64,000 nucleotides of DNA, taken from NCBI GenBank assembly GCA_050258455.1, contig JBLMYT010000132.1, forward strand, positions 82,349 through 146,348. Reading direction: 5' to 3'. The notes beneath the pieces were generated by a model. It was not told the origin of the DNA, made no database searches, and saw only the letters and a list, made by a program, of their open reading frames with translations. The stretch is from Candidatus Omnitrophota bacterium (lineage in GTDB: Bacteria > Acidobacteriota > Aminicenantia > UBA2199). The translations under genes were made by a program, and so were the position numbers. Positions 1-17,800 of this stretch are shown one piece after another. The first letter of the stretch is position 1, and every line of letters starts with the position of its first letter.

Positions 1-3000
1 TCTGAGTTGCTCGACAAGGACAGGATTACTTGTTATGATTTCTACAGCTTTAAGCCAGAGTTGCTCCAAGTCGCTTATCTCGTCAAGATAGCCCCGGTTT
101 CCGGTTGAGACAAAGAAATCATTTAGGAAATCTTTTTCGGTTTGAAGTGAAAATGGGGGATACATTTTACCTGATAAAAAATCGGGACCTAAACAATCAA
201 AAAACGCCAATAAAGCAATTTCTTCATTCATCCGCTCAAGTTGCAATGCCATTTCTAGTCCGATATGTCCGCCCCAGGACCAGGTGGCAATATAATAAGG
301 CCCATGAGCTTGAATTTCCTTTATTTGTGAAATATATTTGGCCGATATTTGTTCGATGGTTTCATTTCGGGGGGCATAATTGCGAAGTTTTTCAGCTTCA
401 ATACCCCAGCAATTAAAGCGTGTGCCCAATTGCTGGCTAAATTCCATATATGCCCCCACATCCCCCAGTACTTCATGCACTAAAAAGATGTTACCTTCAG
501 ACTCAAGGGAGCCATTTAGCATTACAAAATTTCCGGGTACCTGCTTGGATGAACCGGGTAATTGGTGGGCGGTTAGACAGAGTACCAACGAATGAATCGT
601 CGGATGGTTAAATAAGGTAGCCACAGGTATTTCTCGGTTGAGCTTTTCTCTTAATTTATTAGATACTTTAACAAGGTCCAGAGAGTTTCCGCCCAACTCA
701 AAAAAATTGTCCTGAATGCCGACTTTTTCACGATTCAGAACGTCTTTCCAGATTCCGGCAACGATTCGCTGCATCCTGGTTTTGGGGCCTTCATATACCC
801 CGTCGGAATGAAAATCGGATTCCAAGGGTTGAGGTAAGGCGCGCCGATCCATTTTTCCATTAGCATTCAAGGGAATCTTGTCTATTTGAATAAAGCAAGC
901 AGGAACCATATAAGTTGGAAGGGATTCTTCAAGATAGATCTTAAATTCTTGATATGAGGGGATTGGAACCCCTGATGATTGCTCGGCGACAATATAGGCG
1001 CAAAGGTATTTGCGCTCATTCTCCCCCCTATCGATGACAACAGCGTCTTTTATTCCGGAATGAGCGTTGAGCCGGCTTTCGATTTCACCTAACTCAATAC
1101 GGAATCCTCTGATTTTGACCTGATTATCGATTCGCCCCAGGAATTCAATCGTTCCATCGTCCAACCATCTCCCTAAGTCTCCTGTCATATATATCCGCCT
1201 CGATCTCCAGAATAGAAAACGCTCATCGGTCAATCCCGGCCGGTTTAAATACCCCCTGGCCATTCCTTCCCCGCCAATGCATATTTCTCCAACAACGCCT
1301 ATCGGTTGAAGTCTTCTCATTCGATCAATAATATATACCTGATTATTGGCAATGGGAGTTCCGATGGTAATCCGATCGGAGCAGGTCAAATTTTTTATTG
1401 TCGACCAAATTGTGGTTTCCGTTGGACCATACATATTGAATATTTGTCCATTTATAAAAGGCCTGATTTTCTCCAGCAACGATTCGGGAAATGCTTCGCC
1501 TCCTACCAATAAGAATTTCAATGATCTTAAAAAAGTCATTACTTCCGGAAATAAGACCATTGATTGCAGTCTCGATGGCGTAACCTGAAAAATTGAGATA
1601 TTTTCTCTCTCAAAAATAACCCCTGAAGTCTCGGTATTTAATTGATCCTCCCGGCTGCCTACGACCACAACGGAACCCTTGGTTAAGGGAACCAAGGTTT
1701 CAAGGCCAAATATATCGAAGGAAATTGTGGTTAAAGACAATATCCGATCATTCATCGTAAACGGTACAAATTCTGTAATTCCTGTTATAAAATTTACGAC
1801 ATTTCGATGGGCGATCATCACACCTTTCGGTTTCCCGGTCGATCCGGATGTGTAAATGACGTAAGCGAGAAAAGTGGCCGGTGAAGAGAAGAAGTGAAGC
1901 GGTTGAGAGGTTGAGTGGTTAAGAGGATCTAAGGAGAACACATTCTTAACATCTGAACTTCCTAACTTCTGAACTTCTTGATTGTTGGCGGTAACCAACA
2001 ATCGCGCCTGGCTATCTTTTAGTATATAATCAATGCGATCTTGCGGATATTCATAATCAATGGGTAAATAGGCACTGCCTGTTTTTAATATACCCAAAAT
2101 TCCCATTATCATTTCAACCGAACGTTGGATCTTTATCCCTACAATCATACTCGATTGAACACCCTTTTGCATAAGTTCATGCGCCAGTTGATCGGATCGC
2201 TCATTCAATTCCTGATAGGTGATTTGCAAAGGTTTTGCACCAAATGCCCTTACGGTTGAGCCGATGACAGCAATATGCCCCGGAGTTCTTCCGGCCTGTT
2301 CCTCAAATAATTGATGGATCGTCTTATCTTTCGAATAATCTCTGTTTGTATTGTTAAATTCATCCAGTATTCGAATTTTCTCTTCTTCGGATAAAAAAGT
2401 TAATTCGTCAATCCTTAATTCTTTATCCTCAATCACCTGATCAATTGCGACCCGGAAGTGGCAAGCAATCCGTTTGATATAATCCTGATCATACACATTC
2501 CCGTTATATTGAAATGTAACAGTTAATTTATCCGACCCTGCCAACAAAATGTTCAAATTATAAGTGGTTTGTTCAAATGACTCGACATTGGTAATCGCAA
2601 ATGCGATTTTATTTTTTTTTCCGTATCCTTCGATTTGTTCGGCGATGGGGTAATTTTCGAATATAAAGATGTGATCGATCAGGTTTTGCTTTAATGAACT
2701 TTTCGATTGGACCTCCGCTAATGGATGATAATGATACGCTTCACCGACGATTGCTTGTTCTTGTATGTGTTGAAGTAACGAATGAAATTTTGTTTTTCCT
2801 TCAAACCGGATCCGGACGGGAATCGTGTTGATAAATAACCCCACCATGGATTCGATCCCTTCAAACCCGGCCGGCCGCCCGGATACAACGGCACCAAATA
2901 CGACATCGTCTTTCCCATTGTATTTGCCCAGAAGCACTCCCCAGAGGACGCGCGTCACGATATTGACCGTTACATGATACCGGGCTGCCAATTTCGCTAA

Positions 3001-6000
3001 TTCGGCTGTTTTTTCCTTGTCCAACTCAAAAGAAAAACGGTCATTTCGATATTCCTGGCTATTATCCCTTACTATCTTTGATTGGGGAATCCCGGTTTGC
3101 TCTTCAAAACCATCCAGGACATGTTCCCAGTACGCGGCGGATTCTTTTTTATCTTGTTTTTCGAGCCATTGGATATAACTTCGATAGGGTTTGGTTATCG
3201 GTAATTGGTAAACCCTATGTTGAACATAAGCGTTATAGATTTCAAAAAATTCGCTATTTAAAATCCCAATGCACCATCCGTCCATTAATATGTGGTGAAA
3301 ACTCCAGATAAATTCGTAAGTCGAATGATCCAGCCGGAGAATGGATGCTCGTGCCAGGGGCTCCTTACCCAAATCAAAGGAACGTTTTTTATCGTTTGCC
3401 TTAAAATCTTTAATAAACTTTTCTTTTTGTTCCTCACTTCCGATATTTATTATATCTTCGAAATAAAAATCAATGGCTCTGTTTTTTAATACCACCTGAA
3501 TCGGGCGATCCATATCTTTATAAACAAATGTGGTGCGTAACACATCATGTCGCCTGGCCAATTCATTTAAACTATGTTTCACTTGCTCAATGTTTAATTC
3601 CCCTTTCAAACGGTAAGAGGTTTGTTCAAAGTAGGATGAAGATTCCTCGACCAACGCATGAAATAACATCCCTTCCTGCATGGGAGATAAGGTATAAATG
3701 TCTTCAATATCCCCGTATGATTTCATTAATTGCTCAACAGTATCTATGGATAATCCTTTGTAGGTAAAATCAGCGGGAGTGAATTCCGGATTTTCTTTTT
3801 CGCTGCAAAACAAAATAATACGTTTAAGTTGGGAACTGAAATTATCAATTAACGCTTCGATGGTTTCCTTTTTAAAATGCGTCTGATTATAAGATAATGT
3901 CATGTTCAAGCAATTATTCGTTATCATTCCATTAATTTCCAGGCCATATTCCCTTCGATTGGCGATACTTTGCGAATTCCCCGCAGATTCTTTGGCAATC
4001 TCAAACTGGGAAATTTGCTTGATATCGGCATCGAATTGCCCCAGATAATTAAAGATAAGTTGAGGTTTTAATTTAAATTCGATTTCTTTTTTATTCTCTT
4101 CATCGGTAAGATATTTCAATATTCCATACCCGATTCCCTTGTTGGGAATTTTCCGCAGGGTTTCTTTGACCTCTTTGATTTGGCGTCCGATATCATGTGC
4201 ATACGTCATATCGAACCATACAGGGTACTCGATGGTAAACCAGCCAAGGGTTCTGCTAATATCGATATCTTCCATTATCTCTTCCCTTCCATGGCCTTCC
4301 GACGCAATTAATAAATGGTCGATCATCACTTCGGATTCGGGGTTTTCGAACGTTTTCTTTATCCCCATTCCCAATGCCGTTAACAAGATATCATTGACTT
4401 CGGTGTTGTAAATCCGGTTGATTTCGCCAATGAGCAATCCCGTTTCCCGCTCATTCAGACCAAAGGATACATTTCGGATATCCGCCCCGTTATTTTCGTC
4501 TCCGTCGAAATCTGTGGGTATATGAATCCCGTTTGAATGCGATTCCAGGTTAGACCAATAGGGTATTTCTTTCAAGAAATTCTTGCTATTCGCATATTCC
4601 GATAGTTTTTCCGACCAGAACTTGAAAGAATCGGTTTTGAGCGTTAAAGTCGGTGTTTCACCTCGTTTGTATTGACTGTACAGGGTTTCGATATCTTCAA
4701 ATAGGATGCGCCATGAAATGCCGTCAATGACCAGGTGATGGATGACGATCAGTAATCGATCGCCATCCTCGAGATGAAACAAAGCCACTTTCATCAATGG
4801 GCCTCTTTCCAGATCGATGCCGGCCTGTATGCGATTGGCTTTAATCTGAATTTCATCTGCGTGTCTTAATTCATATTCTTCAAACGAGAGAGGATGATCC
4901 AAACCATGACTGATTTGAACGACTGTGTTGAGCTCCTTATTTATGCTATAGGTCATGCGCAAGGCATCATGGTGCGTTTGAATTTCTTTAAATACAAGTT
5001 TAAGAATTTCCTTATCGAATCGCTCTTGGGAATAAAACATGACGGCCTGGTTGTAATGATGAGGCTCTGTTGGAGACGAATTGAAAAACATTTTTTGAAT
5101 CGGTGTTAACGGCACAATACCGGTAATTGCCGATTGATCCGGGATGCGTTTTATTTTCTTGACATGGGAGGATAATTCCGATATAAGAGGATATTGAAAG
5201 AGATCTTTCATCTCTAATTTATACCCTGCATGATTCATTCGTGATATAATCTGGATGGATTTAATGGAATCTCCACCAATATAAAAGAAATTATCATTGA
5301 TTCCTATGTTTTTTTTGCCCAGGACGCCCTCCCAAATCCGAACCAGTTCTCTTTCGATTTCATTTCGGGGAGCTGCATATTGATTTTCAATTTCCATCCA
5401 GGGCTCCGGAAGAGCATTCATATCGATTTTACCATTTGGATTGATCGGTATTTTTTCCATTACGGTAAAATAAGAAGGAATCATATAATGGGGTAATAAT
5501 CCGGATAAATATTCTTTTAACCCTGCCGGATCAAAGGAATGATGCATGGGGGATGAAGGATGAGGGACAAGATAAGCACAGAGAACATTCGAACCGCTAT
5601 CATCATGTCTGATCTGAACCACGACTTCTTTAATATCCACATGCTTCATTAAGCAATTTTCGATTTCACCGATTTCAATACGCATGCCCCTGATTTTAAC
5701 CTGCGTGTCGACTCGCCCCAAAAATTCCAGGTTCCCATCGGCTAACCATCGCCCCATGTCCCCAGTCCTGTAAATGCGTTGCCTCCGGCGGCCCGCTTTT
5801 TGAAAAAAGCGGGGCAAAAACTTTTGGTTTGTTAATTCGGGATTATTGAGATACCCGACGGCTAAACTGGAACCGGCTAAACACATTTCGCCCATGACAC
5901 CGATTGGAACCGGATGAAGATATTTGTCCAGGATATAAACCCTGACATTACTGATGGGTTTTCCGATGAATGCTTTGGAACTTTCCGGCCTCAATTCATA

Positions 6001-9000
6001 AGCGGTGGTGTTGACACTGTTTTCCGTGGGACCGTACTCGTTAAAGATTCGGACTTGCGGTAATTTTTCAAAATGTTTCCGAATCAATTCATCCGGGAAA
6101 TTCTCGCCCGCGCAGGTAATCATTTTAATTCCTGTCAGACAATCCCCGATCTCTTCCAGCATGACATTATAAAAAACGGGAACCACGATAAAATGACTCA
6201 CGCGATGGTTGATGATGACGCGTTTGAGAACCTGAAGATCCGTGCGTTCATTATCTTTGATCAACACCAGACAGGCGCCACCCGATAATGGAGTAAAAAT
6301 ATCGGTAACCGAACTATCGAAAAAATACGGCGGCACTTGAAGCGACACGTGACCCGGTGCATATTGATAATTGTTTTTGCGCCATATTACCGTATTGACA
6401 ATAGTGCGGTGTTTGACCAAAACGCCTTTGGGTGTTCCGGAAGAACCGGAAGTGTACATCACATACGCGGCATCATTGACGGTACCCATTTGAGGTCTTG
6501 AGGAACGCTGAACATGGAGATTTAGCGCATCCGTATAGATAATTGTTGATATGTATTTACTTTTCTGTTGAACATGCGTAAGCTTTTCCCCATACCGTTG
6601 GTTTGATATCACCACGCTGACCGACGCATCATCCAGGACCACGCGCAACCGTTCACCCGGAAGCGATGCGTCGAGCGGAACATACGCGGCTCGCGCTTTC
6701 ATAATTCCCATTAGAGATATCATAAGACCGATGGAACGATCCATGATGACAGCAATTCGATCCCCGGATTGTACTCCGTTTTCGCGTTGTAAATCATGCG
6801 CCAGCCGGTTGGCTTCTTCATCGAAATGACGATAGGTGATCATTTCATTATTAAATACAATCGCCGCATGATCCGGAATTCTATCCACCCAATCCTCAAA
6901 TAAATGATAGAGAGTTTTATCTGTAGGATAGGATTCCGCAGTATCATTAAACAAAACGAGAAGTTTTTCTTTTTCCTCTTCGGATAAAATCTCTATATCC
7001 GAAAGTCGTTGATCTCGATTCTCGATAATCGAATCGACAATGGTTCTGAAATAATCTATAAACCGTAAAATGGTTTCTTCTCTAAATAAACTCGTGCTAT
7101 ATTCGACATTAATCCTTAATTTCTCTTTACTTTCAAATATAATAAAGGTTAGATCAAACTTGGATATAAAATTTTCGTATTCATAAGGTTTTAATATCAA
7201 TCCCGGGATTTGAATTTCAGATATCTCGATATTTTGAAATACAAACATCGTATCAAAAAGTGGGTTACGGGACATGTCCCTATTCTTAACCACCCGATCC
7301 ACAAGATCTTCAAACGGGTAGTCCTGGTTTTCAAACGCATTCAACGTCTTTTCTTTGACCTCTTGAAGAAACCCGTTAAATGTTTTCTCCCCCCGTGGAT
7401 AATGACGCATGGCCAGTGTATTGACAAACATGCCCAGAATTTTTTCCAGATCCGTATGACGTCGCCCGGCAACCGGAGAACCGACTACGATATCGTCCTG
7501 CTGGGATAATCCGGATAAAAAAATGTTGTATATGGTTAGAAATACCATATACATGGTGGCACCCGTTTCAAGACTTAACCGTTTCAAGTCTTCGGTCACC
7601 TCTTGGTCGATCTCAAACGAAATCGTCCGACCTTCAACACTCCGAACCGCTGGTCTTGTATAATCAATGGGAAGTTCAAGTACCGGAATGTCTTCTTCGA
7701 ATTCATGGGACCAGAAAACGCCTTGGCGTTTCAGAAACTCTTTCTGTTGGTCACTGCTTTGCCATTCTGAAAAATCTTTGTATTGAACCCGAAGTTTGGG
7801 CAAACCCTCTCCCGGGTATTCTCCTTGATGATACAATGTCATAAAATCCTTTATCATCACATTCATGGAGCTGCCGTCCGAAATGATGTGATGCATGTCT
7901 AGCATCAGGAGATGTTTATTCTCACTTATATTGAACAGTCCCACTCTCATCAGTGGGGCTTTTGTCAAATCAAAACTTCTGATAAATTCTTCTAACTCTC
8001 TTACCCCCTGACCTTCTTCGCTTCTGACCTTCTTCCTTCCCCCCTCCGTGTCCTCCGTGTGCTCCGTGAGAAAATTTATTTTAAATTCCACCTCATCGTG
8101 AATACGCTGAACCGGTTCATCATCGATCACATGAAACGATGTTCGCAAGCTTTCATGACGCTCGATTAGCCGGATGAACGTTTGTTCCAGCTTATTTTTA
8201 TCAACGTCTCCTTCCAATATAAAATAAGCCGGAATATTGTAATTGATGCCATGGTCATCCATCCGGTGTAACACATATAACCGCTTCTGTGCCGAGGATA
8301 ACTCATAAAACTCTTTCCTCTCGATCGGCTCTATCGAGAAATATTTATTTTTAACAGAGTCTTTGATATAATACGCTAATCCACGAATGGTCGAATTGTT
8401 GAATACCTCTCCCAATGGCATATTGACATGGAATTGTTTTTGAATTTTTGATATCAATACAACTGCCTTTAATGAATGTCCCCCTAACTCGAAAAAATTG
8501 TCTGCTGTTCCGATGACTTCTTTTTTTCTTCCCAATACCTCGGACCAAAGCTCCGTTAATTTCTCCTCGACCTCATTTTCCGGGGCGATATATCCCTGAT
8601 TTATTTTTATCTCAAAAGATGGTAAGGATCTACGATTTATTTTTCCTGTTACCGTAAGGGGTAACGCATCCAAACGCATAAAATAAGACGGTACCATATA
8701 ATCCGGCAATGTATGGGATAAATGGTTTCTCAATTCGGAAGTTGAGAGTGCGATATCCGAAACAACATAAGCACGAAGATATTTATCCCCCCTATCCTCT
8801 TTAATAACAACAACCGCTTCCTTTATTTTCTCATGTGATAGTAATCGATTTTCAATTTCTTCCAACTCAATTCGGAATCCCCGAATCTTCACCTGTTGAT
8901 CGAAGCGGCCCAAAAACTCAATATTCCCATCATCCGACCATCGACACAAATCTCCCGTCTTATAAAAGTTTTTGGAAAACTTCTCCAAGGTTAATTCGGG

Positions 9001-12000
9001 TCGATTCAAGTACCCGCGGGCCAATCCCTGACCTGAAATCCATAACTCACCCGCTATCCCTATACTTTGCAAATGACCGTATTTGTTTAAAATAGATAAC
9101 TTAATATTGGGTAACGGTTTTCCAATCGGAACAGTATTGCTTTTATTCTCGCGCGACAGCGAATACCAGGAGGCATATACGGTGCTTTCGGTCGGCCCAT
9201 AAATATTCTCCAATTTTACGGATGTATTCAAATCGTTGAATTTTTTGACCAGCTCAGGGAGTAACGCTTCTCCGGCTAAAAAGATATATTTTAGACTCGA
9301 TAACCGATACCTATTCCTCGTATTCAAATAACCGATAAACGCATTGAACATGGAAGGAACAAAATTAATATGAGTGACCAATCGCCTTTCAATCGTATTC
9401 AATATGACATCAGGATCTTTTTCAAACCCTTTTTCCAATACGGCTAACCGTCCCCCTCCCATAAACCATCCGAAGAGTTCGGTTACCGATACATCAAAAA
9501 CGTAAGATGTTTTTAAAAGATAAGTATCCGATTCATGAAAAGGATACTTGTCTTGCATCGCATATAATAAATTGACAACCGATGCATGATTCACCATTAC
9601 GCCTTTGGGATTCCCGGTGGAACCGGAGGTATAAATGATGTAAGCAAGGTTTGAATGTTTAGCCACAGAGGTCACAGAGGACACGGAGGGAGAGGAGAAG
9701 TTAAGAGGGTGAGAAGATGGGAGGTTAAGATGATCTAAAGCGATCACTCTCTTATCTTCTGAACTTCTTAACTTCTCAACTTCTGCATTATTGCTGGTAA
9801 GCAATAATGCCGCCCCACTGTCTTTGAGCATATAATTAATACGCTCTTGCGGTAATCCGGGATCAATGGGTAAATAAGCGCCACCGGCTTTCAAAATACC
9901 CAGGACACCAATCATTAGTTCAAGCGAACGATCAATCTTAACACCCACAATCACATCGGGGCCAACCCCTTTTTTTATTAATTCGAGCGCCAATTGATCG
10001 GATCGCTCATTCAAGTCATTGTAAGATAATTGAGGGCAGACACGCGGGTCTGCTCCTACCAAAGATGGACCTATAAGAGCGACATGACCCGGCGTTCTTG
10101 CGGCTTGTTCCTCAAATAACTGATGAATGGTTTTATCGTTTGGATATTCGATTTCCGTATCATTAAAACCAAATAATAATTTTTCCTTTTCTTCATCAGT
10201 AAGAATTTCAAAATCCGAAATCTTTCGGTCTTTATTTTCAACATTTTCAACATTTTCAACAACACCATTGAGGATATTTTTTAAATAAACAATCAATCGC
10301 TCGATCGTCTCTTTTTTAAATAACCTTGTACTGTATTCAAATGCAAATACCAGTTTTTCATCGACTTCCATCCCAGACAATGTTAAATCGAATTTGGATA
10401 TTTTAGTCTCATACGCATAAGAAGATAATTTCAATCCGGGAAGCTCCATTTCTTGCAGTTGGAAATTTTGCAACACAAACATGACATCAAACAACGGGTT
10501 GCGAGCGGTATCTCGATGGATAACGACATGTTCAACCAATTCCTCATATTGGTATTCCTGGTTCTCAAACGCACGCAATGCGTTCTCTTTGACTTCAGTA
10601 ATGAATTCGGTAAATGATTTCTCCCCTTCCGGGTAATTTCGTAATGCCAGGGTATTGATAAACATACCGACAATTTGTTCCAGGTCCGAATGGTTCCGAC
10701 CGGCAATGGGTGAACCCACAATGATATCTTCCTGATTGGTTACTTTTGATAAAAATACGGTGTATGCCGCCAGGAGTACCATATACAATGTGGCCCCGGT
10801 TTCTATCGCCAATTGATTCAAATGTCCGGTTAGCTCTTGATCGATCTCAAAATTAATGCTGCTTCCTTCAAAGCTCTGAACCACGGGCCTTGCAAAATCT
10901 AGCGGAAGTTCCAATACGGGGATCTCCCCACTAAACTCATTTAACCAAAAATCCTTTTTCTGATTTAGCGATTCTTTTTCGAATTCCCTCTTTTGCCATT
11001 CCGAAAAATCTTTGTACTGCACCCGAAGAGATGGTAAATCCTCATTGTTATATAAAGCCATGAAGTCCTGAACCATCAAATTCATGGAAGTTCCATCCGA
11101 AATGATGTGATCCATGTCGATCAACAGAAGATGTTTATTCTCCCCTATTTTTAACACTCCCACTCGTATGAGTGGGGCTGTTGTCAAATCAAAACTTCTG
11201 ATAAATTTTTCTATCTCTCTTACCCTCTGACCTTCTTCACTTCTTATCTTCTTCCTTCCCCCCGCCGTGTCCTCCGTGTGCTCCGTGAGAAAATTTATTT
11301 TAAATTCCACCTCATCGTGAATACGCTGAACCGGTTCATCATCGATCACATGAAACGATGTTCTGAAACTCTCATGTCTACGGATTAATGCCCAAAAAAT
11401 TTCTTCAAACTTTTCCTTTTGAACTTCTCCTTCCAGTAAGAAAATATACGGTACATTATAGCCTTCACTCTGCTCGTCCATTTGGTGCAGCAAATATAAG
11501 CGCTTTTGAGCGGAAGATACCGGGTAATATTCCTTCTCTTCTACCGGGAGAATCGAGTCGTGCCCCACCTGGGTCTGTTCCTTGATATATTCGGCTAATC
11601 TCCGAATGGTCGGCGTTTTGAACAACTCAGCCAATGGTATTTTTACATGCAATTCTTTATGTATCCTGGCTGCAAGGATGGTGGCTTTAAGTGAATGACC
11701 GCCAAGATCAAAAAAATCCGAATCGATCCCGATGAGGTTGGATTCAAGATTCAATACCTCGGACCACAATGAAACCAATGTCATTTCAATTTTAGTACGA
11801 GGACCGCTATAGGTTTTATCCGTCCGGGCTTGCGGCTTTGGCAAGGCACTGCGGTCGATTTTTCCATTGGACGTGAGCGGTATCCGATCGATTCTGACAA
11901 CAAAACTCGGAATCATATAATCCGGCAGCACTCCGGTCAGCAACCGCTTGATTTCAGTTGGATCGATGTCTTTATCACTCACGATATAAGCGCATAAATA

Positions 12001-15000
12001 AATATCGTCCGATTCATCGGTTCGATCTACCACCACCACTTCCTTGATCCCCCTATACTTCAATATCTGGTTTTCAATTTCGCCTAACTCGATGCGGAAT
12101 CCCCGAAGCTGAACTTGATGATCGATTCGTCCCAAATAAACCAGCTCGCCTTTTTCCAGAAACCGGGCCAAATCGCCCGACCGGTACAGCCGCTCCTCTT
12201 TTTTATAGGGATTTTCAACAAACTTCTCAACGGTTAATTCCGGCCGATTCAGGTACCCTCGGGTGACGCCAGCCCCTCCCACCATCAATTCTCCACCAAT
12301 GCCTATCGGTTGCAATTGCAGGTTTCGGTCCATGATATAAGTGGTTAAGGTAGGAATGGGCTGACCGATATTGCTCACATTCTGTTCGATTTCGCCACGA
12401 CCGATCTCTTTATAGGTCACATGAACCGTGGTTTCCGTAATACCAAACATGTTGATTAAACGGGTACTGGGATATTGCTCATGCCATTGTTTCAATTTCC
12501 CGGGATGGAGGGCTTCGCCCCCAAATATGACGGTGCGTATTGCCAAACCGTGTCTTTCCTGTTGTAAATCAACTTCAATGAACCGATAAAATGCAGATGG
12601 GGTTTGGTTCAGGATGGTTACGCCATACTGTCTCACAAGGGAAAGAAAATGCGCCGTATCTCGGGCAACCATCTTGGGAACAACGACGACTCTGCCGCCA
12701 TTTAACAGGGAGCCGAACAGTTCCCATACGGAAAAATCAAAACAATGGGAATGAAACATGGTCCATATGTCCGAGCCATTAAAGTCAAATTGAAATTTTT
12801 CGTTAAACAGCAGGCTCACGACATTGCGATGCTCCACCATCACGCCTTTGGGTCTTCCGGTGGTACCGGAGGTGTAAATGATATAAGCGAGAGAGGTGGC
12901 CGGTGGCCGGTGGCCGGCACTTGGGCAGACACGCGGGTCTGCCCCTACGCGGATTTCCCCTTGTAGGGGCGCACCCATGTGTGCGCCCGCCTTGCAGAAA
13001 CTCGGATCTGCCCCTACGGAATAATTAACCAATAAACACGCTCGACTATCCATTAACATGTAATCGATCCGGTCCCGGGGATAATCCGGATCGATCGGTA
13101 AATACGCACCGCCGGATTTTAAAATCCCTAAAATTCCGATGATCATCTCAACGGAACGTTCGGCTTTTATTGCAACGAGGGTGTCCGGCCCAACCCCCTT
13201 CTCGATTAATAATGCGGCCAATCGATCGGATTCTTCGTTCAATTCGTGGTAGGTGATTTGATGGGTGAATACGCTTGAAGTCTCAACTCGAGACGGACCG
13301 ATGACGGCAATCCGATCGGGAGTCTGAGCCGCATTTTTCTCAAAAAAATTATGAATCGTTTGATCCTTAGGGAAACCGGCCCGTTCCCCATTCCATTCCC
13401 ACAACAATTGCTCTTTTTCCACTTCGGATAGCAGGTCGATCCGGGAAATGGGAAGATGGGGGTTCACGATCACGCGTTCCAATATCTGTTGATAATGAGT
13501 CAATAATCGCGAAATCCTGCTTTGATCGTAATAGTCGCGATTGTACACCAATTGACCGCAAAAAATCTCGACGCCATGATGGATTCGCTTCTGAATCAAG
13601 AAATTCAGATCGTATTTCCCCCACCCCAGATTGGTTTCTTCGACTTCGAGAACCGCTTCTCCCAGTGTGGATTTCCAAAAGGGGGCTTCTTCATATTGAA
13701 ACAACACATCAAATAAGGCGGTCCGACTCATATCATTTTCCGGGTTTAGTTCCAGCACCAATCGGTCAAACGGCATTCCCCCGTAAATCAATGCTTCGGA
13801 CACGGTTTCGTTTAATTTCTCAAACACGTCGCTAAACGTGTGACTGCCCTCGATAACACTTCGCAAGACCAATAAATTGGCGGCGGGTCCAATCATGGGT
13901 TCCATGTCGGGACTCGGACGGTTTCCCGTACTGGTCCCCACAATAATTTCCGACTGATCACAGTATCGATGCAATAAAATTTTAAAGGCAGACAATAACA
14001 ATAATAGAACAAAATCCCCCCCCTTTTCTTTATTAAAACTAAGGATTTTATTGGTCAATGATTGGGGAAATACAACCGGGTGATGCGCTTCATGATAAAT
14101 ATGAATTAATGCCCGGGGTCTATCCGTCGGTAATTCAAATGGCTGGAGTTTACCATTTAGCTTCCGTTTCCAATAAAATAAGAGCCGATCCAGAAGTTCT
14201 TCCGAAAATGACTGCTGCCAACTGCAAAACGCAGGAAACTGGATCGCAAGTTCCGGTAATTGCGGGGATTGGCTTTCCTCAAACGCGTCATAGGATAATA
14301 CCAATTCGTTTAAAAAGAGCTCCAATGACTGTTTATCCGCCACAATATGATGAAAGGTTATTACCAATAGGAATTTTTGAGTTTCCCACCGGATTAATTT
14401 TCCCCTGATCGGAAGGTCATGGGACAGCCGGAAAGGTTTTTGGGATTCAGCGATAGCCAGGGAAAGGGCATCTGTATCGCTGAGATGACAAACGGTATCT
14501 GTGAAAAGCTTAAATTGTAACGCATTATCCTCGACCAGGATCGGTTTATTCTCTCTTGTTTCGATCCGGGTATGCAAAATCGTGTGACGTTTGATAATAT
14601 GGCAAATACTTTTTTCCAGCAATGGTTCATCGACAGAACCATTAATCGATACGATCAACGGAATATTATGATAAACCGGAGAAGATTCATAGAGATACCC
14701 GGTTTCAAATTCATTGATAAACCACAACCGTTCCTGGTGATACGACGCCTTACCTTCGGAGGTTTTCGCCGGAGGAAGAATCCGGGGAGGATACCAATGG
14801 CAGATATCGTCGTCTAACAGTAACCGGGATATGGATGTTGAGGAATGCGTGATCACTCGGTTCAGTAATTCAAGAAAACGATTCAGCATTCGCCGGATGG
14901 TTTTATTCTCAAAGAGATCAAGGTTATATTCAACGGAAACCGTTAATGTGGTTTCTCTCTCATAAATATAGATCACCAAATCAAATTTTGCATGACGATA

Positions 15001-17205
15001 ACCGGTCTCAAAAGGTTTGAGTTTCAAGGCGTTTCCCAAAACATTCGGTTGAGGCGATGTATAATTAATCATGTTTAACATCACATCAAACAACGGATGC
15101 CGGGAGGGATCTCGTGATATTTTCAAGGCTTCCAAAAGGACATCAAACGGATACGACTGATGCGCATAAGCTTCCAGGGCGATTTTTCGGACTTTCTCCA
15201 ATAATTCGGCAAACGTATTCATGCTCGTGAACCGCGTTCGTAATGCCAGGGTATTCAGATAAAATCCAATCTGGTTTTCCAGGTCCATATGTTCTCTTCC
15301 GGCGATGGGAGTGCCAACGATCATATCCGTTTGGCCACTGTAACCGTAAAACAACACATTGATCAAACCGAGAAATACCATAAACAGCGTGACATCATTT
15401 TCTTTACCCAGATTTCGCAATTTCTCGGTTAAATCTTCATCCAGATCGACCGAAACGGTATTCCCCCGATAACTTTTTATGGCCGGGCGCACAAAATCTG
15501 CCGGTAACTCCAAAACCGGTAATTCCCCTCGGAATTGTTCCAACCAGTAACGTTCATCTTCGTGCGCCTTTCCTTGCAAAAATTGCCGATTTTGCCATGC
15601 GGCAAAATCTTTATATTGAATCCGCAACCGTGCCAACGGATTTTGTTTGCCCTGTCGGTATGCATCATAGAGTGCCCTCACCTCGGAGATGAAAATATCC
15701 ATAGATACCGCATCACTGATAATGTGGTGCATATTGAATAGGCACACATATTTTTCCATATCCAATCGGATGAGTCTGACTCTTAATAATGGCCCCCGGG
15801 CCAGGTCGAATAGAAATTCCGATTCTTTACAAGCCTCTTCTTTGATTCTACCTTCCTTGTCATTCAGTTGCCGAAAATCCGATTCCTCGACATTAAAGTC
15901 GCTTTGTCCGGGAAGTTTGACACGTTGTTTCGGTTCTCCATCGATTGGAATAAATACGGTACGTAAACTTTCATGCCGGTTTACCAGGGTATAAAAGGTT
16001 TGTATCAATGCGTTGGTATCCAATGCCCCATCGATTATCGACGCACTGGGCATATTAAACGCGATACAACTGTCTTCAATCTGGCTCCCTGTCCAAACGC
16101 GCGTTTGCGAATGCGTGAGATCGTAATATTCTTTTTCCTCCACGGGCTGAATCCGTTCATATACCGCGTCGTCCGATTCCCTGATTTTTTTTACCCGGCC
16201 AGGGGACGCGTTGGCGCCTGATGAGTGGCCTCTCAATTGGAAATTACCGGAGTACTCGACTTTAGCTGGGTCCTTTAAAATATCCATCCATGTTTTGACC
16301 AACTTTTCCCGGATATCATTTGGGGAGTTGCAATTATCGATTTCTCTTTTTATTGGCTCATGGATGGCTTTATTAAATAACTGCTTCTTTTCTTCTTCGG
16401 GGATAACTTCAATTTCCGATACCTTTATTTCTAAATTCGATAACACCATTTCCGAAAGATGATGAAAATGATCCCCAATTCGTTTGATCGCTTCACGGTT
16501 ATAAAAACGCGCATCATAGTGGATTTTACCATTAATTAATCCGTTAACGCGTGAAAACAAAAACACCACTTTCGGACTGACACGTGAAATATCCCCTCTA
16601 TTCTGGATATTTTCCAGGATAATCGCCACATCGAAGAGCGGGCACTCTTTTTCAGAAAACCTCGCCCCCAACTGCCGAACCAATACCTCAAACGGATAAT
16701 TGCGATTTTCCTCGGAATCAATGACGGTCTGCCTGACCTGAAGCAGTAATTCTTTAAAGGTCATATGATCCGTCAACCGGTTCCGCAATGCCAATATCGT
16801 ATTGATAAACTCACCCCGATTGCCTTCATTATTCTTAACCTTTCCCCCGTTATTCTTTTCTCCGTGTCCCCCGTGTGCTCCGTGAGAAACCCCCGTTCCA
16901 ATGATGATATCCTCATGATCCGTGTATTTTGAAAGTAAAAGAGTCAGTATGGCACTCAAGACAATATGAAGACGGATATCCGAATCCGCACTCAGTTTCA
17001 TTAAACGCGACGAAAGTTCTTCATCAAAAAAAATATCGATCGAATTTCCCCCCAAAACCTCGACGTTTTCCTGTATGGGCGTATAAGGAAAATGACTTTT
17101 TATCAAATCGCCGGATAATTTTTCAAGCCAATATTCCTTTTCTCTCACCTTCTTTCCCGCTGCCATCCATAATCTGTCAAAACCGGATAAATCTCTGACA
17201 CTCAT
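1..17205 (-). CDS. Multimodular non-ribosomal peptide synthetase; four A domains, an epimerization domain and a terminal thioesterase are visible; the 3' end is partial and continues past the window start
   Basis: The minus-strand frame (codon first positions divisible by 3) is open from the ATG at 17205 (MSVRDLSGFD..., GGAG 7 nt upstream) to position 1. The ORF track shows no competing long ORF here because the stop lies outside the window. Reverse-complement translation gives the A3 motif LAYIIYTSGTTGRPKG at about 12850 and similar YTSGSTG motifs near 9640, 6470 and 1860. Carrier-protein motifs DLGGHSL (about 11700) and ELGGNSLDL (about 660) are present. A condensation motif MHHIISDG lies at about 7900. 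The epimerization motifs IHHLVIDGISW (about 4760) and EGHGRE (about 4290) are followed by a DCL-type condensation start YPLSPMQEGMLFH. A thioesterase serine motif TWSWGGHIG lies at about 260-290. Confidence 0.92.
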   Translation of the reverse strand, partial: MSVRDLSGFDRLWMAAGKKVREKEYWLEKLSGDLIKSHFPYTPIQENVEVLGGNSIDIFFDEELSSRLMKLSADSDIRLHIVLSAILTLLLSKYTDHEDIIIGTGVSHGAHGGHGEKNNGGKVKNNEGNRGEFINTILALRNRLTDHMTFKELLLQVRQTVIDSEENRNYPFEVLVRQLGARFSEKECPLFDVAIILENIQNRGDISRVSPKVVFLFSRVNGLINGKIHYDARFYNREAIKRIGDHFHHLSEMVLSNLEIKVSEIEVIPEEEKKQLFNKAIHEPIKREIDNCNSPNDIREKLVKTWMDILKDPAKVEYSGNFQLRGHSSGANASPGRVKKIRESDDAVYERIQPVEEKEYYDLTHSQTRVWTGSQIEDSCIAFNMPSASIIDGALDTNALIQTFYTLVNRHESLRTVFIPIDGEPKQRVKLPGQSDFNVEESDFRQLNDKEGRIKEEACKESEFLFDLARGPLLRVRLIRLDMEKYVCLFNMHHIISDAVSMDIFISEVRALYDAYRQGKQNPLARLRIQYKDFAAWQNRQFLQGKAHEDERYWLEQFRGELPVLELPADFVRPAIKSYRGNTVSVDLDEDLTEKLRNLGKENDVTLFMVFLGLINVLFYGYSGQTDMIVGTPIAGREHMDLENQIGFYLNTLALRTRFTSMNTFAELLEKVRKIALEAYAHQSYPFDVLLEALKISRDPSRHPLFDVMLNMINYTSPQPNVLGNALKLKPFETGYRHAKFDLVIYIYERETTLTVSVEYNLDLFENKTIRRMLNRFLELLNRVITHSSTSISRLLLDDDICHWYPPRILPPAKTSEGKASYHQERLWFINEFETGYLYESSPVYHNIPLIVSINGSVDEPLLEKSICHIIKRHTILHTRIETRENKPILVEDNALQFKLFTDTVCHLSDTDALSLAIAESQKPFRLSHDLPIRGKLIRWETQKFLLVITFHHIVADKQSLELFLNELVLSYDAFEESQSPQLPELAIQFPAFCSWQQSFSEELLDRLLFYWKRKLNGKLQPFELPTDRPRALIHIYHEAHHPVVFPQSLTNKILSFNKEKGGDFVLLLLLSAFKILLHRYCDQSEIIVGTSTGNRPSPDMEPMIGPAANLLVLRSVIEGSHTFSDVFEKLNETVSEALIYGGMPFDRLVLELNPENDMSRTALFDVLFQYEEAPFWKSTLGEAVLEVEETNLGWGKYDLNFLIQKRIHHGVEIFCGQLVYNRDYYDQSRISRLLTHYQQILERVIVNPHLPISRIDLLSEVEKEQLLWEWNGERAGFPKDQTIHNFFEKNAAQTPDRIAVIGPSRVETSSVFTHQITYHELNEESDRLAALLIEKGVGPDTLVAIKAERSVEMIIGILGILKSGGAYLPIDPDYPRDRIDYMLMDSRACLLVNYSVGADPSFCKAGAHMGAPLQGEIRVGADPRVCPSAGHRPPATSLAYIIYTSGTTGRPKGVMVEHRNVVSLLFNEKFQFDFNGSDIWTMFHSHCFDFSVWELFGSLLNGGRVVVVPKMVARDTAHFLSLVRQYGVTILNQTPSAFYRFIEVDLQQERHGLAIRTVIFGGEALHPGKLKQWHEQYPSTRLINMFGITETTVHVTYKEIGRGEIEQNVSNIGQPIPTLTTYIMDRNLQLQPIGIGGELMVGGAGVTRGYLNRPELTVEKFVENPYKKEERLYRSGDLARFLEKGELVYLGRIDHQVQLRGFRIELGEIENQILKYRGIKEVVVVDRTDESDDIYLCAYIVSDKDIDPTEIKRLLTGVLPDYMIPSFVVRIDRIPLTSNGKIDRSALPKPQARTDKTYSGPRTKIEMTLVSLWSEVLNLESNLIGIDSDFFDLGGHSLKATILAARIHKELHVKIPLAELFKTPTIRRLAEYIKEQTQVGHDSILPVEEKEYYPVSSAQKRLYLLHQMDEQSEGYNVPYIFLLEGEVQKEKFEEIFWALIRRHESFRTSFHVIDDEPVQRIHDEVEFKINFLTEHTEDTAGGRKKIRSEEGQRVREIEKFIRSFDLTTAPLIRVGVLKIGENKHLLLIDMDHIISDGTSMNLMVQDFMALYNNEDLPSLRVQYKDFSEWQKREFEKESLNQKKDFWLNEFSGEIPVLELPLDFARPVVQSFEGSSINFEIDQELTGHLNQLAIETGATLYMVLLAAYTVFLSKVTNQEDIIVGSPIAGRNHSDLEQIVGMFINTLALRNYPEGEKSFTEFITEVKENALRAFENQEYQYEELVEHVVIHRDTARNPLFDVMFVLQNFQLQEMELPGLKLSSYAYETKISKFDLTLSGMEVDEKLVFAFEYSTRLFKKETIERLIVYLKNILNGVVENVENVENKDRKISDFEILTDEEKEKLLFGFNDTEIEYPNDKTIHQLFEEQAARTPGHVALIGPSLVGADPRVCPQLSYNDLNERSDQLALELIKKGVGPDVIVGVKIDRSLELMIGVLGILKAGGAYLPIDPGLPQERINYMLKDSGAALLLTSNNAEVEKLRSSEDKRVIALDHLNLPSSHPLNFSSPSVSSVTSVAKHSNLAYIIYTSGSTGNPKGVMVNHASVVNLLYAMQDKYPFHESDTYLLKTSYVFDVSVTELFGWFMGGGRLAVLEKGFEKDPDVILNTIERRLVTHINFVPSMFNAFIGYLNTRNRYRLSSLKYIFLAGEALLPELVKKFNDLNTSVKLENIYGPTESTVYASWYSLSRENKSNTVPIGKPLPNIKLSILNKYGHLQSIGIAGELWISGQGLARGYLNRPELTLEKFSKNFYKTGDLCRWSDDGNIEFLGRFDQQVKIRGFRIELEEIENRLLSHEKIKEAVVVIKEDRGDKYLRAYVVSDIALSTSELRNHLSHTLPDYMVPSYFMRLDALPLTVTGKINRRSLPSFEIKINQGYIAPENEVEEKLTELWSEVLGRKKEVIGTADNFFELGGHSLKAVVLISKIQKQFHVNMPLGEVFNNSTIRGLAYYIKDSVKNKYFSIEPIERKEFYELSSAQKRLYVLHRMDDHGINYNIPAYFILEGDVDKNKLEQTFIRLIERHESLRTSFHVIDDEPVQRIHDEVEFKINFLTEHTEDTEGGRKKVRSEEGQGVRELEEFIRSFDLTKAPLMRVGLFNISENKHLLMLDMHHIISDGSSMNVMIKDFMTLYHQGEYPGEGLPKLRVQYKDFSEWQSSDQQKEFLKRQGVFWSHEFEEDIPVLELPIDYTRPAVRSVEGRTISFEIDQEVTEDLKRLSLETGATMYMVFLTIYNIFLSGLSQQDDIVVGSPVAGRRHTDLEKILGMFVNTLAMRHYPRGEKTFNGFLQEVKEKTLNAFENQDYPFEDLVDRVVKNRDMSRNPLFDTMFVFQNIEISEIQIPGLILKPYEYENFISKFDLTFIIFESKEKLRINVEYSTSLFREETILRFIDYFRTIVDSIIENRDQRLSDIEILSEEEKEKLLVLFNDTAESYPTDKTLYHLFEDWVDRIPDHAAIVFNNEMITYRHFDEEANRLAHDLQRENGVQSGDRIAVIMDRSIGLMISLMGIMKARAAYVPLDASLPGERLRVVLDDASVSVVISNQRYGEKLTHVQQKSKYISTIIYTDALNLHVQRSSRPQMGTVNDAAYVMYTSGSSGTPKGVLVKHRTIVNTVIWRKNNYQYAPGHVSLQVPPYFFDSSVTDIFTPLSGGACLVLIKDNERTDLQVLKRVIINHRVSHFIVVPVFYNVMLEEIGDCLTGIKMITCAGENFPDELIRKHFEKLPQVRIFNEYGPTENSVNTTAYELRPESSKAFIGKPISNVRVYILDKYLHPVPIGVMGEMCLAGSSLAVGYLNNPELTNQKFLPRFFQKAGRRRQRIYRTGDMGRWLADGNLEFLGRVDTQVKIRGMRIEIGEIENCLMKHVDIKEVVVQIRHDDSGSNVLCAYLVPHPSSPMHHSFDPAGLKEYLSGLLPHYMIPSYFTVMEKIPINPNGKIDMNALPEPWMEIENQYAAPRNEIERELVRIWEGVLGKKNIGINDNFFYIGGDSIKSIQIISRMNHAGYKLEMKDLFQYPLISELSSHVKKIKRIPDQSAITGIVPLTPIQKMFFNSSPTEPHHYNQAVMFYSQERFDKEILKLVFKEIQTHHDALRMTYSINKELNTVVQISHGLDHPLSFEEYELRHADEIQIKANRIQAGIDLERGPLMKVALFHLEDGDRLLIVIHHLVIDGISWRILFEDIETLYSQYKRGETPTLTLKTDSFKFWSEKLSEYANSKNFLKEIPYWSNLESHSNGIHIPTDFDGDENNGADIRNVSFGLNERETGLLIGEINRIYNTEVNDILLTALGMGIKKTFENPESEVMIDHLLIASEGHGREEIMEDIDISRTLGWFTIEYPVWFDMTYAHDIGRQIKEVKETLRKIPNKGIGYGILKYLTDEENKKEIEFKLKPQLIFNYLGQFDADIKQISQFEIAKESAGNSQSIANRREYGLEINGMITNNCLNMTLSYNQTHFKKETIEALIDNFSSQLKRIILFCSEKENPEFTPADFTYKGLSIDTVEQLMKSYGDIEDIYTLSPMQEGMLFHALVEESSSYFEQTSYRLKGELNIEQVKHSLNELARRHDVLRTTFVYKDMDRPIQVVLKNRAIDFYFEDIINIGSEEQKEKFIKDFKANDKKRSFDLGKEPLARASILRLDHSTYEFIWSFHHILMDGWCIGILNSEFFEIYNAYVQHRVYQLPITKPYRSYIQWLEKQDKKESAAYWEHVLDGFEEQTGIPQSKIVRDNSQEYRNDRFSFELDKEKTAELAKLAARYHVTVNIVTRVLWGVLLGKYNGKDDVVFGAVVSGRPAGFEGIESMVGLFINTIPVRIRFEGKTKFHSLLQHIQEQAIVGEAYHYHPLAEVQSKSSLKQNLIDHIFIFENYPIAEQIEGYGKKNKIAFAITNVESFEQTTYNLNILLAGSDKLTVTFQYNGNVYDQDYIKRIACHFRVAIDQVIEDKELRIDELTFLSEEEKIRILDEFNNTNRDYSKDKTIHQLFEEQAGRTPGHIAVIGSTVRAFGAKPLQITYQELNERSDQLAHELMQKGVQSSMIVGIKIQRSVEMIMGILGILKTGSAYLPIDYEYPQDRIDYILKDSQARLLVTANNQEVQKLGSSDVKNVFSLDPLNHSTSQPLHFFSSPATFLAYVIYTSGSTGKPKGVMIAHRNVVNFITGITEFVPFTMNDRILSLTTISFDIFGLETLVPLTKGSVVVVGSREDQLNTETSGVIFERENISIFQVTPSRLQSMVLFPEVMTFLRSLKFLLVGGEAFPESLLEKIRPFINGQIFNMYGPTETTIWSTIKNLTCSDRITIGTPIANNQVYIIDRMRRLQPIGVVGEICIGGEGMARGYLNRPGLTDERFLFWRSRRIYMTGDLGRWLDDGTIEFLGRIDNQVKIRGFRIELGEIESRLNAHSGIKDAVVIDRGENERKYLCAYIVAEQSSGVPIPSYQEFKIYLEESLPTYMVPACFIQIDKIPLNANGKMDRRALPQPLESDFHSDGVYEGPKTRMQRIVAGIWKDVLNREKVGIQDNFFELGGNSLDLVKVSNKLREKLNREIPVATLFNHPTIHSLVLCLTAHQLPGSSKQVPGNFVMLNGSLESEGNIFLVHEVLGDVGAYMEFSQQLGTRFNCWGIEAEKLRNYAPRNETIEQISAKYISQIKEIQAHGPYYIATWSWGGHIGLEMALQLERMNEEIALLAFFDCLGPDFLSGKMYPPFSLQTEKDFLNDFFVSTGNRGYLDEISDLEQLWLKAVEIITSNPVLVEQLR

Positions 17206-17389
17206 TTTAAAAAAATCTCCTTATTGCTTATGAGCCCTTACAAATGATCGTTGGATTTTTACAAAATTCTGACTTTTTAAGGTAGCATAATAACATATTT
17301 AAATTATTTGTTCAATGACAACGATAACCAATCATCGGAATTTAAAAAATTATATTCCTTTACGTGATTTTTTTTAATAATCCCGGAAA

Positions 17390-17800
17390 CTTTTCATTCA
17401 TTTCCCAAAAATTATCTAACATTTCCGAAAACTTATCACATGTTTCGACAAACTGCTAATAAATCGCAGAAATTTTTCATCCATTTCCGAAATCTTACAA
17501 TTAACTTCTGCAAATTTTTAACACGTTTCGACAAACTAATAACGTTTTGCGGAAATTTTCAATGCATTACCGTAAATTTTTAACGCACTACCGCAAACGT
17601 TTAATGCATCTCCGCAAAATTTCAATCAAATCCCGAAAATTTTCAATGTTTTTCAAAATCCAGTAACGCATTTCGACAATTTTTTAACCTTTTCCGAAAA
17701 ACCTGCAACGCCATCCGGCAAACGGTTAACAGCTACCGAAATTTTTTAATCCCGTTCCACGAACTTTCTGTCACTTCCTGAAAATAATCCAAAAAGGCTT
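17390..17800. promoter_or_regulatory. AT-rich divergent promoter region carrying about 19 degenerate repeats of the form CCG-N-AAA-W-TTTT-YAAYGC with a roughly 21 bp period
   Basis: Direct reading of the sequence, e.g. ttccgaaaacttatcacatg / tttcgacaaactgctaataaa / ttccgaaatcttacaattaac / ccgcaaaatttcaatcaaatc. The array lies between the NRPS start (17205, minus) and the phosphoesterase start (17852, plus). Confidence 0.6.

Follow-up and report, generated by a model that had tools for sequence, protein, structure and literature searches.

Architecture of the gene

The subject of this report is a nonribosomal peptide synthetase (NRPS) gene at the left end of a 64-kb stretch of DNA (the window, to which all positions below refer) from contig JBLMYT010000132.1 of a bacterium labelled Candidatus Omnitrophota. 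The gene lies on the minus strand, from 17205 to 1, and encodes a terminal, thioesterase-bearing NRPS subunit. We consider it likely that the first module of this subunit is vestigial, that its unusual N-terminus is the start typical of NRPS subunits in this lineage, and that the two adjoining condensation (C) domains that follow belong to a threonine module.

Translation of the reverse complement gives 5735 codons in a single frame with no internal stop. A preliminary description of the locus had claimed a continuous frame of at least 17.2 kb, and this claim holds. The frame runs past the left end of the window, and the protein has at least 5735 amino acids (aa). Its ATG start codon at 17205-17203 (-) is preceded by a Shine-Dalgarno sequence and by an in-frame TAA at 17223-17221. 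Together these rule out a truncated open reading frame (ORF) or an overlooked N-terminal lobe (N-lobe), and a tblastn search of 17206-19000 returned no N-lobe and no remnant of an adenylation (A) or carrier (T) domain.

Domains were assigned by Pfam scans of domain-sized pieces of the translated frame (Table 1). Their order, about which we have practically no doubt, is half-C, carrier stub, C, C*, A, T, C, A, T, C, A, T, E, C, A, T, TE. Here half-C is the C-terminal lobe (C-lobe) of a C domain, C* is the second member of the tandem pair (we call the first C1), E is an epimerization domain and TE a thioesterase. The main elements of the preliminary description are thereby recovered: a C domain lacking its N-lobe, a degenerate carrier-like segment, two complete C domains back to back before the first A domain, and then A-T, C-A-T, C-A-T-E, a DCL-type C domain, A-T and TE, assigned by Pfam, TIGR01720 and alignment of the C domain after E. 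The protein has the hallmarks of a modular (type I) NRPS, namely A-domain cores, GGxS carriers, HHxxxD domains and a terminal TE (PF00975). The motifs YTSGxxGxPKG, YxTGD, GRxDxQVKIRGxRIE and NGKxD (A3, A7, A8 and A10) occur in all four A domains, which match PF00501/PF13193. Downstream of aa 346 the A and T domains (four of each) and six C/E active-site motifs have all remained intact.

Table 1. Positions of the features discussed (window coordinates unless another locus is named)
Feature	Position	Strand	Basis or remark
Shine-Dalgarno AAGGAG	17217..17222	-	11 nt 5' of ATG; read from sequence
half-C, C-terminal lobe of a C domain, without HHxxxD	16378..17205 (aa 1-276)	-	Pfam PF00668
C-A linker and first residues of an A domain very probably lost (...EEEKKQLFNKAIHEPIKREIDNC)	16330..16377 (aa 277-292)	-	junction after aa 292
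Carrier stub, helix 1 and degenerate NFQLRGHS (for DNFFxLGGHS)	16216..16329 (aa 293-330)	-	helices 2-4 missing
C1, LCL type, HHIISDAVS	14815..16131 (aa 359-797)	-	Pfam 382 bits, full length
C*	13411..14745 (aa 821-1265)	-	Pfam 251 bits, full length
A1, code DFWNIGMVHK (Thr)	11860..13344	-	Pfam; code by motif; cores intact
T1, FFDLGGHSL	11584..11778	-	Pfam PP-binding 71.6 bits
C3, LCL type, DHIISDGTS	10210..11532	-	Pfam 418 bits
A2, code DVTNFAIVYK, no substrate assignment	8641..10116	-	Pfam
T2, FFELGGHSL	8365..8565	-	Pfam
C4, LCL type, HHIISDGSS	6976..8313	-	Pfam 436 bits; 61% identity to C3
A3, code DSTITAEVNK, Tyr-like	5428..6900	-	Pfam
T3, FFYIGGDSI, type found before E domains	5161..5349	-	Pfam
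E, HHLVIDGIS and EGHGRE	3742..5121	-	TIGR01720 165.6 bits (cut-off 74.2); Pfam Condensation 294 bits
C5, DCL type, HHILMDGWC, LSPMQEGMLFH	2377..3705	-	Pfam 393 bits
A4, code DILQLGMIWK (Gly, 9/10)	853..2307	-	Pfam
T4, FFELGGNSL	580..762	-	Pfam
Thioesterase, TWSWGG nucleophile elbow, cut by window end	1..489	-	PF00975 positions 3-153 of 226
Tail-bearing C-termini in other loci	L083 1-6438; L084 1-2630; L084 4361-9973; L085 1835-6682; unannotated ORFs of L003, L017, L074		

A conserved half domain at the N-terminus

The Pfam Condensation match of half-C spans aa 20-276 and covers only profile positions 192-455 of 456 (E 2e-33). An AlphaFold model of aa 1-345 has predicted local distance difference test (pLDDT) values of 85-98 across aa 10-265, and a Foldseek search with the half-C model returned NRPS C domains at E 1e-15 with a TMt of about 0.45, that is, half a domain. 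Sequence comparison places half-C nearest to LCL C-lobes (24-27% identity) and farthest from C*, an order of similarity that excludes a derivation from C*. A loop insertion rich in Gly, His and Asn (aa 107-130, window 16816-16887) is disordered in the model. The insertion (VSHG.HGGHGE) is common only to a paralogue, P0014, which was assigned to the same metagenome-assembled genome (MAG) by its accession series, MGE534xxxx.

Half-C is far from unique to this protein. It shares 58% identity with the N-terminus of P0014 and 35-47% with those of at least 20 other NRPS subunits, 47% being the best match outside its own MAG. The same start recurs at the same aligned position in at least 25 other NRPS subunits; P0019, P0053, P0101, P0115, P0211, P0269 and 18 shorter matches share the aligned start Met, and half-C subunits have the motif (D/E)RLW..AAGKK.KEREYWLEKLSGEL.KS.FP in common. 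A normal A domain comes after half-C in these relatives, except in the shortest matches (some of about 190-330 aa, partial or half-C only), and the A-less layout of the window protein is absent from all half-C relatives found. Judged by these alignments, half-C is not a truncation: NRPS subunits of Aminicenantes-like bacteria share it as a conserved N-terminus.

Gene order is informative about what precedes such a subunit. Wherever the upstream gene is visible (loci L003, L017, L074, L083, L085 and L084, the last with three successive subunits), half-C opens a new gene, and the gene before it closes with a complete C domain and, after that, a short acidic/aromatic tail. The tails read GDFGF, GEFGF, ITFGF, IDFEF, TAFQF, DEWEL and SFGNF, and the C-terminus of P0014, FKGGF, is similar to them. 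Because the visible upstream genes end in a full C domain, half-C marks a downstream subunit and not a starter.

What might half-C do there? The short aromatic tail may be a docking motif, and we would give even chances to the suggestion that half-C is the docking element. In such a scheme half-C would be a supernumerary acceptor-side lobe, and its probable task would be to receive the upstream subunit with its terminal full C domain and aromatic tail. NRPS subunits are known to dock by communication-mediating (COM) domains and by TubC_N beta-hairpin domains that bind C-terminal short linear motifs; there, likewise, the start of one subunit meets a conserved short C-terminal tail of its partner. 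The exchange unit C-domain (XUC) concept uses the boundary between the C-domain lobes as an exchange point, and half-C corresponds to the same acceptor-side lobe as in an XUC fusion unit. In contrast to both, the upstream partner of half-C keeps its complete C domain, which would make half-C an extra lobe and not one half of a split domain. The arrangement of half-C after a full C domain with a short aromatic tail thus suggests an undescribed way of joining NRPS subunits, which is of engineering interest.

In related Aminicenantes-type clusters, genes for B12-binding radical SAM proteins lie between the NRPS subunits (L083 6462-9958; L084 2658-4340 and 15578-17245). A radical SAM/B12 domain is also inserted within one A domain of the L084 subunit at 4361-9973.

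A first module that is very probably vestigial

What follows half-C in the window protein is best understood by comparison with its relatives. The segment at aa 277-292 aligns to aa 262-284 of P0115 (EEEKQVLLLDFNNTRTGYPAEKTIDEC), and the last aligned stretch, EPIKREIDNC in the window against YPAEKTIDEC in P0115, corresponds to the first residues of the A domain. The alignment resumes at about aa 812 of P0115, at the start of the carrier (NSPNDIREKLVKTW in the window, APRDEVEWEMAKIW in P0115), and about 527 aa are absent from the window protein. P0014, a halfC-A-T-C subunit, gives the same picture of the gap, and alignments of P0019, P0101 and P0269 also support the loss of the A domain.

A second gap affects the carrier. 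After the GHS of the stub 23 residues are missing in comparison with P0115, and 23-26 across P0115 and P0014, so that the segment, described before as carrier-like and degenerate, is about 25 aa short. A carrier domain is a four-helix bundle of about 70 aa with the motif (D)xFFxLGGHS, and the stub has neither. A Pfam scan of aa 1-345 gave no PP-binding match at E<=0.01 and nothing recognisable in aa 277-345, and the AlphaFold model has pLDDT values of 28-47 from aa 316 on. An Aminicenantes MAG (L003, protein P0269) keeps the layout intact, as halfC-A-T-C-C*-A(Thr)-T-C-A; C1, C* and A1 there share respectively 57%, 56% and 62% identity with their counterparts in the window protein. As far as homology can tell, these comparisons show that the ancestral layout was halfC-A-T-C-C*-A(Thr)-T-...

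We therefore think it very probable, on the strength of these alignments, that an entire A domain, of about 520 aa, is gone from the first module, along with carrier helices 2-4. Among the options that the preliminary description had left for this region, the decayed module is the one that fits, with an A domain and part of a carrier gone relative to P0115, P0014 and L003. Because both deletions are in frame, the four downstream modules are still translated from the original start. The window protein would once have taken a chain from a partner and would now either skip one residue or start at Thr. A chain that still reached it might come, for instance, by way of P0014-like proteins encoded elsewhere in the MAG. 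A natural, in-frame loss of a module is one route by which assembly lines shorten.

It might be argued that decay has gone further and that the whole gene is a non-functional relic of a longer assembly line. The first module is clearly dead, palindromic repeats have landed inside A1 and A2 (see below), and the flank to the right holds housekeeping genes and not cluster genes. Against this stands a frame of 17.2 kb without a stop or frameshift and with intact A, T, C, E and TE motifs, which is unlike neutral decay; the frame was preserved, moreover, by both deletions and by both repeat insertions. We regard the relic as highly improbable.

A more mundane suggestion is that the A domain is missing only from the assembly, repeated NRPS modules having collapsed when the MAG was put together. 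NRPS modules are repetitive indeed, and the independent evidence stops short of the critical place: a Logan assembly of run SRR24085925 agrees 100% with the window from position 16861 to the right, over aa 1-115 and the sequence upstream of the gene, and its contig breaks within the NRPS gene, before the deletion junction. Still, the stub is degenerate at conserved positions and carries a deletion of its own, neither of which is expected of a mis-join between intact modules, and the junction lies outside any sequence repeated elsewhere in the gene. An assembly artefact is, in our opinion, hardly credible.

The tandem pair is part of a threonine module

C1 is an ordinary LCL domain. Its best match in the Protein Data Bank (PDB) is the PCP-C structure of TycC (2jgp, 1.8e-93), and the T-to-C linker VEEKEYYDL is kept before it. 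C* is different. It carries the motifs SYHQERLWFI..YHNIP, HHIVADKQS, DMSRTALFDV and NLGWGKYDLN, in agreement with the motifs that are invariant in the C* clade, S[YFW]HQERLWFI, YHN[IL]P, HHxxxD[KR]xS, DMSRTALFD and GKYDLN, all of which lie in aa 821-1265. Across phyla His-His-x3-Asp and about 55 other columns are invariant.

One genome per species was scanned with two C* motifs as query. This gave 244 loci, from Aminicenantes, Acidobacteriota, Bacteroidota, Verrucomicrobiota, Chloroflexota, SAR324, Pseudomonas and Lysobacter; the neighbourhood counts that follow come from the 80 loci that were fetched. (In an exhaustive HMMER search with C*, giant multi-C proteins swamped the ranking, and a local search of the sequences for the C* motif took its place.) A full C domain lies directly upstream of C* in 68 of the 80 loci, fused to it in 60 and closing the gene before it in 8, and most of the remaining 12 are cut by contig ends. 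Where the A domain after C* is readable it has a Thr-type code in 68 of 70 cases, and the same loci contain 31 Thr-type A domains without C*. The C* domains of Pseudomonas, Lysobacter and the window score 280-380 bits against one another and at most 196 bits against any LCL domain, including their own neighbours. For the window C* the values are 294 bits to the C* of KeaB, 280-294 over those of Pseudomonas KeaB and of Lysobacter, at most 182 to any LCL and 162 to its own C1. Going by these scores and counts, C* is a separate clade, found in many phyla and tied almost exclusively to Thr-type A domains, and in the readable loci the C-C* pair is, by its position, an internal elongation (Thr) module and not a piece of initiation logic.

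One further candidate relative, PDB 8z0q (the "special condensation domain" HtmB2-CT), was rejected since it is without the His-His motif; a literature search on this entry gave unrelated papers only.

Like half-C, C* is able to open a subunit, as in the gene after P0101 in L083. In subunits that have half-C only, the upstream full C domain must form the peptide bond, and by analogy it is the LCL domain that condenses in the tandem pair. C1 would then form the peptide bond, and C*, which travels with the Thr A-T unit, would act otherwise on the carrier-bound Thr.

The claim of the preliminary description that fares worst is that of a non-canonical initiation architecture: half-C recurs at the starts of downstream subunits, C-C* is an internal Thr module, and the protein shows no starter-C features. 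The claim can be put in its strongest form as follows. C1 would work as a starter C domain that acylates Thr, with an acyl-CoA, an acyl-ACP or an amino acid from a free-standing A-T protein as donor, and half-C with the stub would merely be a leader. The frame and all downstream motifs are intact, half-C is well conserved (more so with respect to P0014 than C1 is), and other NRPS subunits in the same MAG could act in trans. Yet C1 is nearest to the TycC LCL domain and to the internal C domain of the relatives' tandem pairs, the T-to-C linker is retained before it, the relative L003 has a normal A-T at the same position, and no acyl ligase, acyl carrier protein (ACP) or free A-T gene is found in the 47 kb to the right of the NRPS gene. 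A working initiation module of this kind seems to us improbable. Nor does C1 look like a normal starter or lipoinitiation domain, a possibility that the preliminary description had named, as it is LCL-like, has internal orthologues and is preceded by the stub and the T-C linker.

C* and L-allo-threonine

If C1 condenses, C* in a functional threonine module is free for something else, and several suggestions can be made regarding what this might be. The best clues come from synthetases of known products. The Pseudomonas loci have the module order [C-C*-A(Thr)-T][C-A(Thr)-T][D-clade C-A(Asp)-T][C-T], which matches residues 6-9 of the syringomycin class: aThr, dehydrobutyrine (Dhb), 3-OH-Asp and 4-Cl-Thr. 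The codes of strain QS1027 (Gly3-Hse4 / Thr6-Thr7-Asp8) fit keanumycin, and those of P. corrugata (Asx3-Hse4-His5 / Thr6-Thr7-Asp8) fit cormycin; in both, C* belongs to module 6. Marfey analysis showed residue 6 to be L-allo-Thr in keanumycins A and D (Götze et al. 2023, PMC9897216; PMC10599466). The same papers note a "tandem CL domain" in the first module of KeaB, and likewise in the thanamycin and nunamycin synthetases, with a role that the authors call uninvestigated.

These mycin synthetases resemble the window protein. An LCL domain is followed by C*, a Thr-type A domain and a GGHSL carrier, and HQERLWFI and DMSRTALFD are present. They differ in that their pair opens a subunit of a Pseudomonas lipodepsinonapeptide line, while ours follows a vestigial module in a bacterium of a candidate phylum, and the identity between the C* domains is only 33-36%.

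A second peptide family can be added. Locus L081 of Lysobacter sp. ISL-50 reads Arg, a residue whose code was not extracted, Thr (with C*), Gly and Asn. This pattern fits Arg6-Ile7-aThr8-Gly9-HyAsn10 of lysobactin, to which L081 is assigned by comparing its A-domain codes with the peptide sequence. As in the family of the window protein, C-C*-A(Thr)-T is followed by a Gly module, and the C* domains score 280-292 bits. No mention of the tandem pair was found in a paper on lysobactin, and a literature search on tandem C domains, interface domains, Dhb and allo-Thr found no paper in which the pair was tested.

In each matching peptide of known structure the C* module thus falls on L-allo-Thr. From these correspondences we propose, at a confidence a little short of even, that C* converts carrier-bound L-Thr to L-allo-Thr by inversion at the beta carbon and is the source of L-allo-Thr in these peptides. 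A conceivable route would be a His-mediated dehydration of Thr followed by rehydration. Going one step further, C* could be a new catalytic branch of the C superfamily (a beta-epimerase or a dehydratase/hydratase) and half-C a new tail-capturing docking domain. This double proposal is tentative, and we would put it somewhat below even. The tandem pair in Pseudomonas lipopeptide synthetases is already known; what is added here is a tie of C* across phyla to Thr, and probably to L-allo-Thr. The tie gives a testable hypothesis for how NRPSs make L-allo-Thr, and C* a sequence marker for predicting this residue in genome mining.

The Thr code and the Pseudomonas hosts had suggested that C* makes Dhb. 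This candidate was dropped when C* turned out to sit at residue 6 and not at Dhb7. The neighbouring Dhb7 module has an identical 10-residue Thr code without C*, and C* is therefore not the Dhb-forming element.

More generally, C* might be compared with the dehydrating C domains (CmodAA/DHC), D-clade domains that lie downstream of a Ser/Thr carrier of the GGDSx type and give dehydro residues (PMC10880069). AmbE-C2, AlbB-C2/C3 and LgnD-C2 are of this kind. Like C* in our proposal, they are members of the C superfamily whose action on a beta-hydroxy amino acid bound to a carrier is modification, instead of or besides condensation, and they are a possible chemical precedent for dehydration and rehydration by C*. 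They differ in acting on the donor carrier from the downstream side, and C* differs from them in position, clade and product.

Other extra C-fold domains are known that sit within a module and do something else than form peptide bonds. They are the X domain of glycopeptide NRPSs and the interface (I) domain, and both are tied to P450s or TauD hydroxylases. The I domain of siderophore NRPSs was reportedly assigned to Asp/His modules by Reitz and colleagues in 2019. Unlike these domains C* keeps HHxxxD, is tied to Thr, and has no partner enzyme conserved alongside in the loci examined.

Could C* nevertheless dehydrate Thr to Dhb, or serve as an interface domain and hold a TauD-type beta-hydroxylase in position? 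Thr is indeed the substrate, C domains with dehydrating activity exist (PMC10880069), and in one locus, L001, a TauD gene comes after the C-C* gene. But C* stands upstream of A(Thr), the carrier that follows (T1 in the window) is of the GGHSL type and leads to an LCL domain, C* groups nearer the L-clade, its PDB matches are L-clade domains, and the AmbE CmodAA structure is absent from the PDB matches of C* and C1. In the mycin synthetases, again, the Dhb7 module is without C* and residue 6 is L-allo-Thr. As to an interface role, I domains have been described for Asp/His modules, Thr has a beta-hydroxyl already, and the code after C* is that of Thr in 68/70. We find either variant very improbable indeed.

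Gate-keeping or a scaffold-only role are the main alternatives to catalysis by C*. In the scaffold version C* would be what is left of the C domain proper to the module, no longer catalytic and retained only to support the A domain, and L-allo-Thr would arise in some other way. C* and half-C do occupy the same place, before an A domain and after a full C domain, either fused or at the start of a subunit, and the Gly of HHxxxDG has changed to Lys or Arg in most C* members. On the other side, His-His-x3-Asp and some 55 other columns do not vary from phylum to phylum, the clade goes with one type of substrate, and there is, unlike in the case of half-C, no C* member that lacks its N-lobe. For these reasons we consider an idle C* unlikely, and prefer a C* that acts on Thr.

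Points that weigh against this interpretation

A number of observations weigh against the interpretation offered here, or against parts of it. The deletion junction lies outside the coverage of the second assembly, which makes an assembly collapse possible, and no relative with more than 60% identity is found in the databases, which precludes dating the deletion or testing its conservation. No further NRPS piece occurs elsewhere in the 64-kb window, so that the partner subunit was not found there, and an exact-match scan of metagenome contigs gave no sequence beyond its left end. The docking role of half-C is one suggested by gene order and tail motifs. The specificity codes of the A domains were read by motif rules and not by a trained predictor. 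The link between C* and L-allo-Thr is a correlation, drawn from two or three families of characterised peptides, and the synthetase might instead receive L-allo-Thr as the free amino acid. One of the two A domains without a Thr-type code after C* is that of L017 (about 9990-13000), with the code DVSDFALVYK. Finally, on a forest-soil metagenome contig (L001, 6433-7521) a gene for a TauD-family dioxygenase comes directly after the C-C*-A(Thr)-T-C gene; such a neighbour was noted only in L001, among few C* loci for which flanking genes were read.

The downstream modules and their product

From A1 onward the assembly line is conventional (Table 1). The A-domain codes, whose extraction the preliminary description had recommended, were obtained for all four domains. 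That of A3 matches the Tyr code DGTITAEVAK at 8/10 positions. The E domain is recognised by TIGR01720 and EGHGRE, by the GGDSI carrier before it and by the DCL domain after it, and this DCL domain, C5, aligns with positions 3252-3702 of PRK05691, a C domain that likewise follows E. The core peptide is accordingly predicted from the codes and domain order to be (L-allo-)Thr, X, a D-configured aromatic (Tyr-like) residue and Gly, released by the TE. The earlier estimate of at least four residues, one of them D, is in line with four A domains and one E domain.

Two details of these modules may be mentioned. In C3 the first His of HHxxxDG is replaced by Asp (DHIISDG, 11098-11112, aa 2032-2036). 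The code of A2, to which no substrate was assigned, resembles the non-Thr code of L017.

Other observations at the locus

The genes to the right of the NRPS gene are housekeeping genes (metallophosphoesterase, Ddl, YceG, Dus, Era and others). Era and the metallophosphoesterase are 100% identical to MGE5344012.1 and MGE5343980.1 of the MAG labelled Candidatus Omnitrophota. The next-nearest Era proteins, at 72-79% identity, include several from Aminicenantes MAGs, and the nearest named relatives of the NRPS domains are mostly Aminicenantes MAGs too. The NCBI label Candidatus Omnitrophota may thus be wrong.

Between the NRPS start and the divergent metallophosphoesterase gene there is a gap of 646 bp, which contains about 20 degenerate 21-bp units of approximately CCGnAAAnnTTTnAAnnnAnT (window 17360-17770). 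Their start-to-start spacing is 21, 41 or 83 bp, in phase with two helical turns, and the array could be a set of regulator-binding sites or bent DNA.

The GC-rich palindrome GGGCAGACCCGCGTGTCTGCCC occurs three times in the window (0 expected), at 12923-12944, 10034-10055 and 57312-57333. Two copies lie in frame in the variable loops of A1 and A2, where they encode the peptide VGADPRVCP, and the third is intergenic. The palindrome looks like a mobile repeat of the repetitive extragenic palindromic (REP) kind that is tolerated inside coding sequence.

At 34016-35974 (-), 17 kb from the NRPS gene, adjoining genes encode a PALP protein (an enzyme dependent on pyridoxal phosphate, PLP) and a protein of the ornithine cyclodeaminase family. 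The pair is like SbnA/SbnB, the makers of L-2,3-diaminopropionate; the substrate of A2, as said, is unassigned. Near the right end of the window, at 60403-63657 (+), lies a gene for a protein of 1084 aa with an N-terminal TIR domain, an AAA_16 NTPase and many TPR repeats, a STAND-like architecture typical of defence or signalling proteins.

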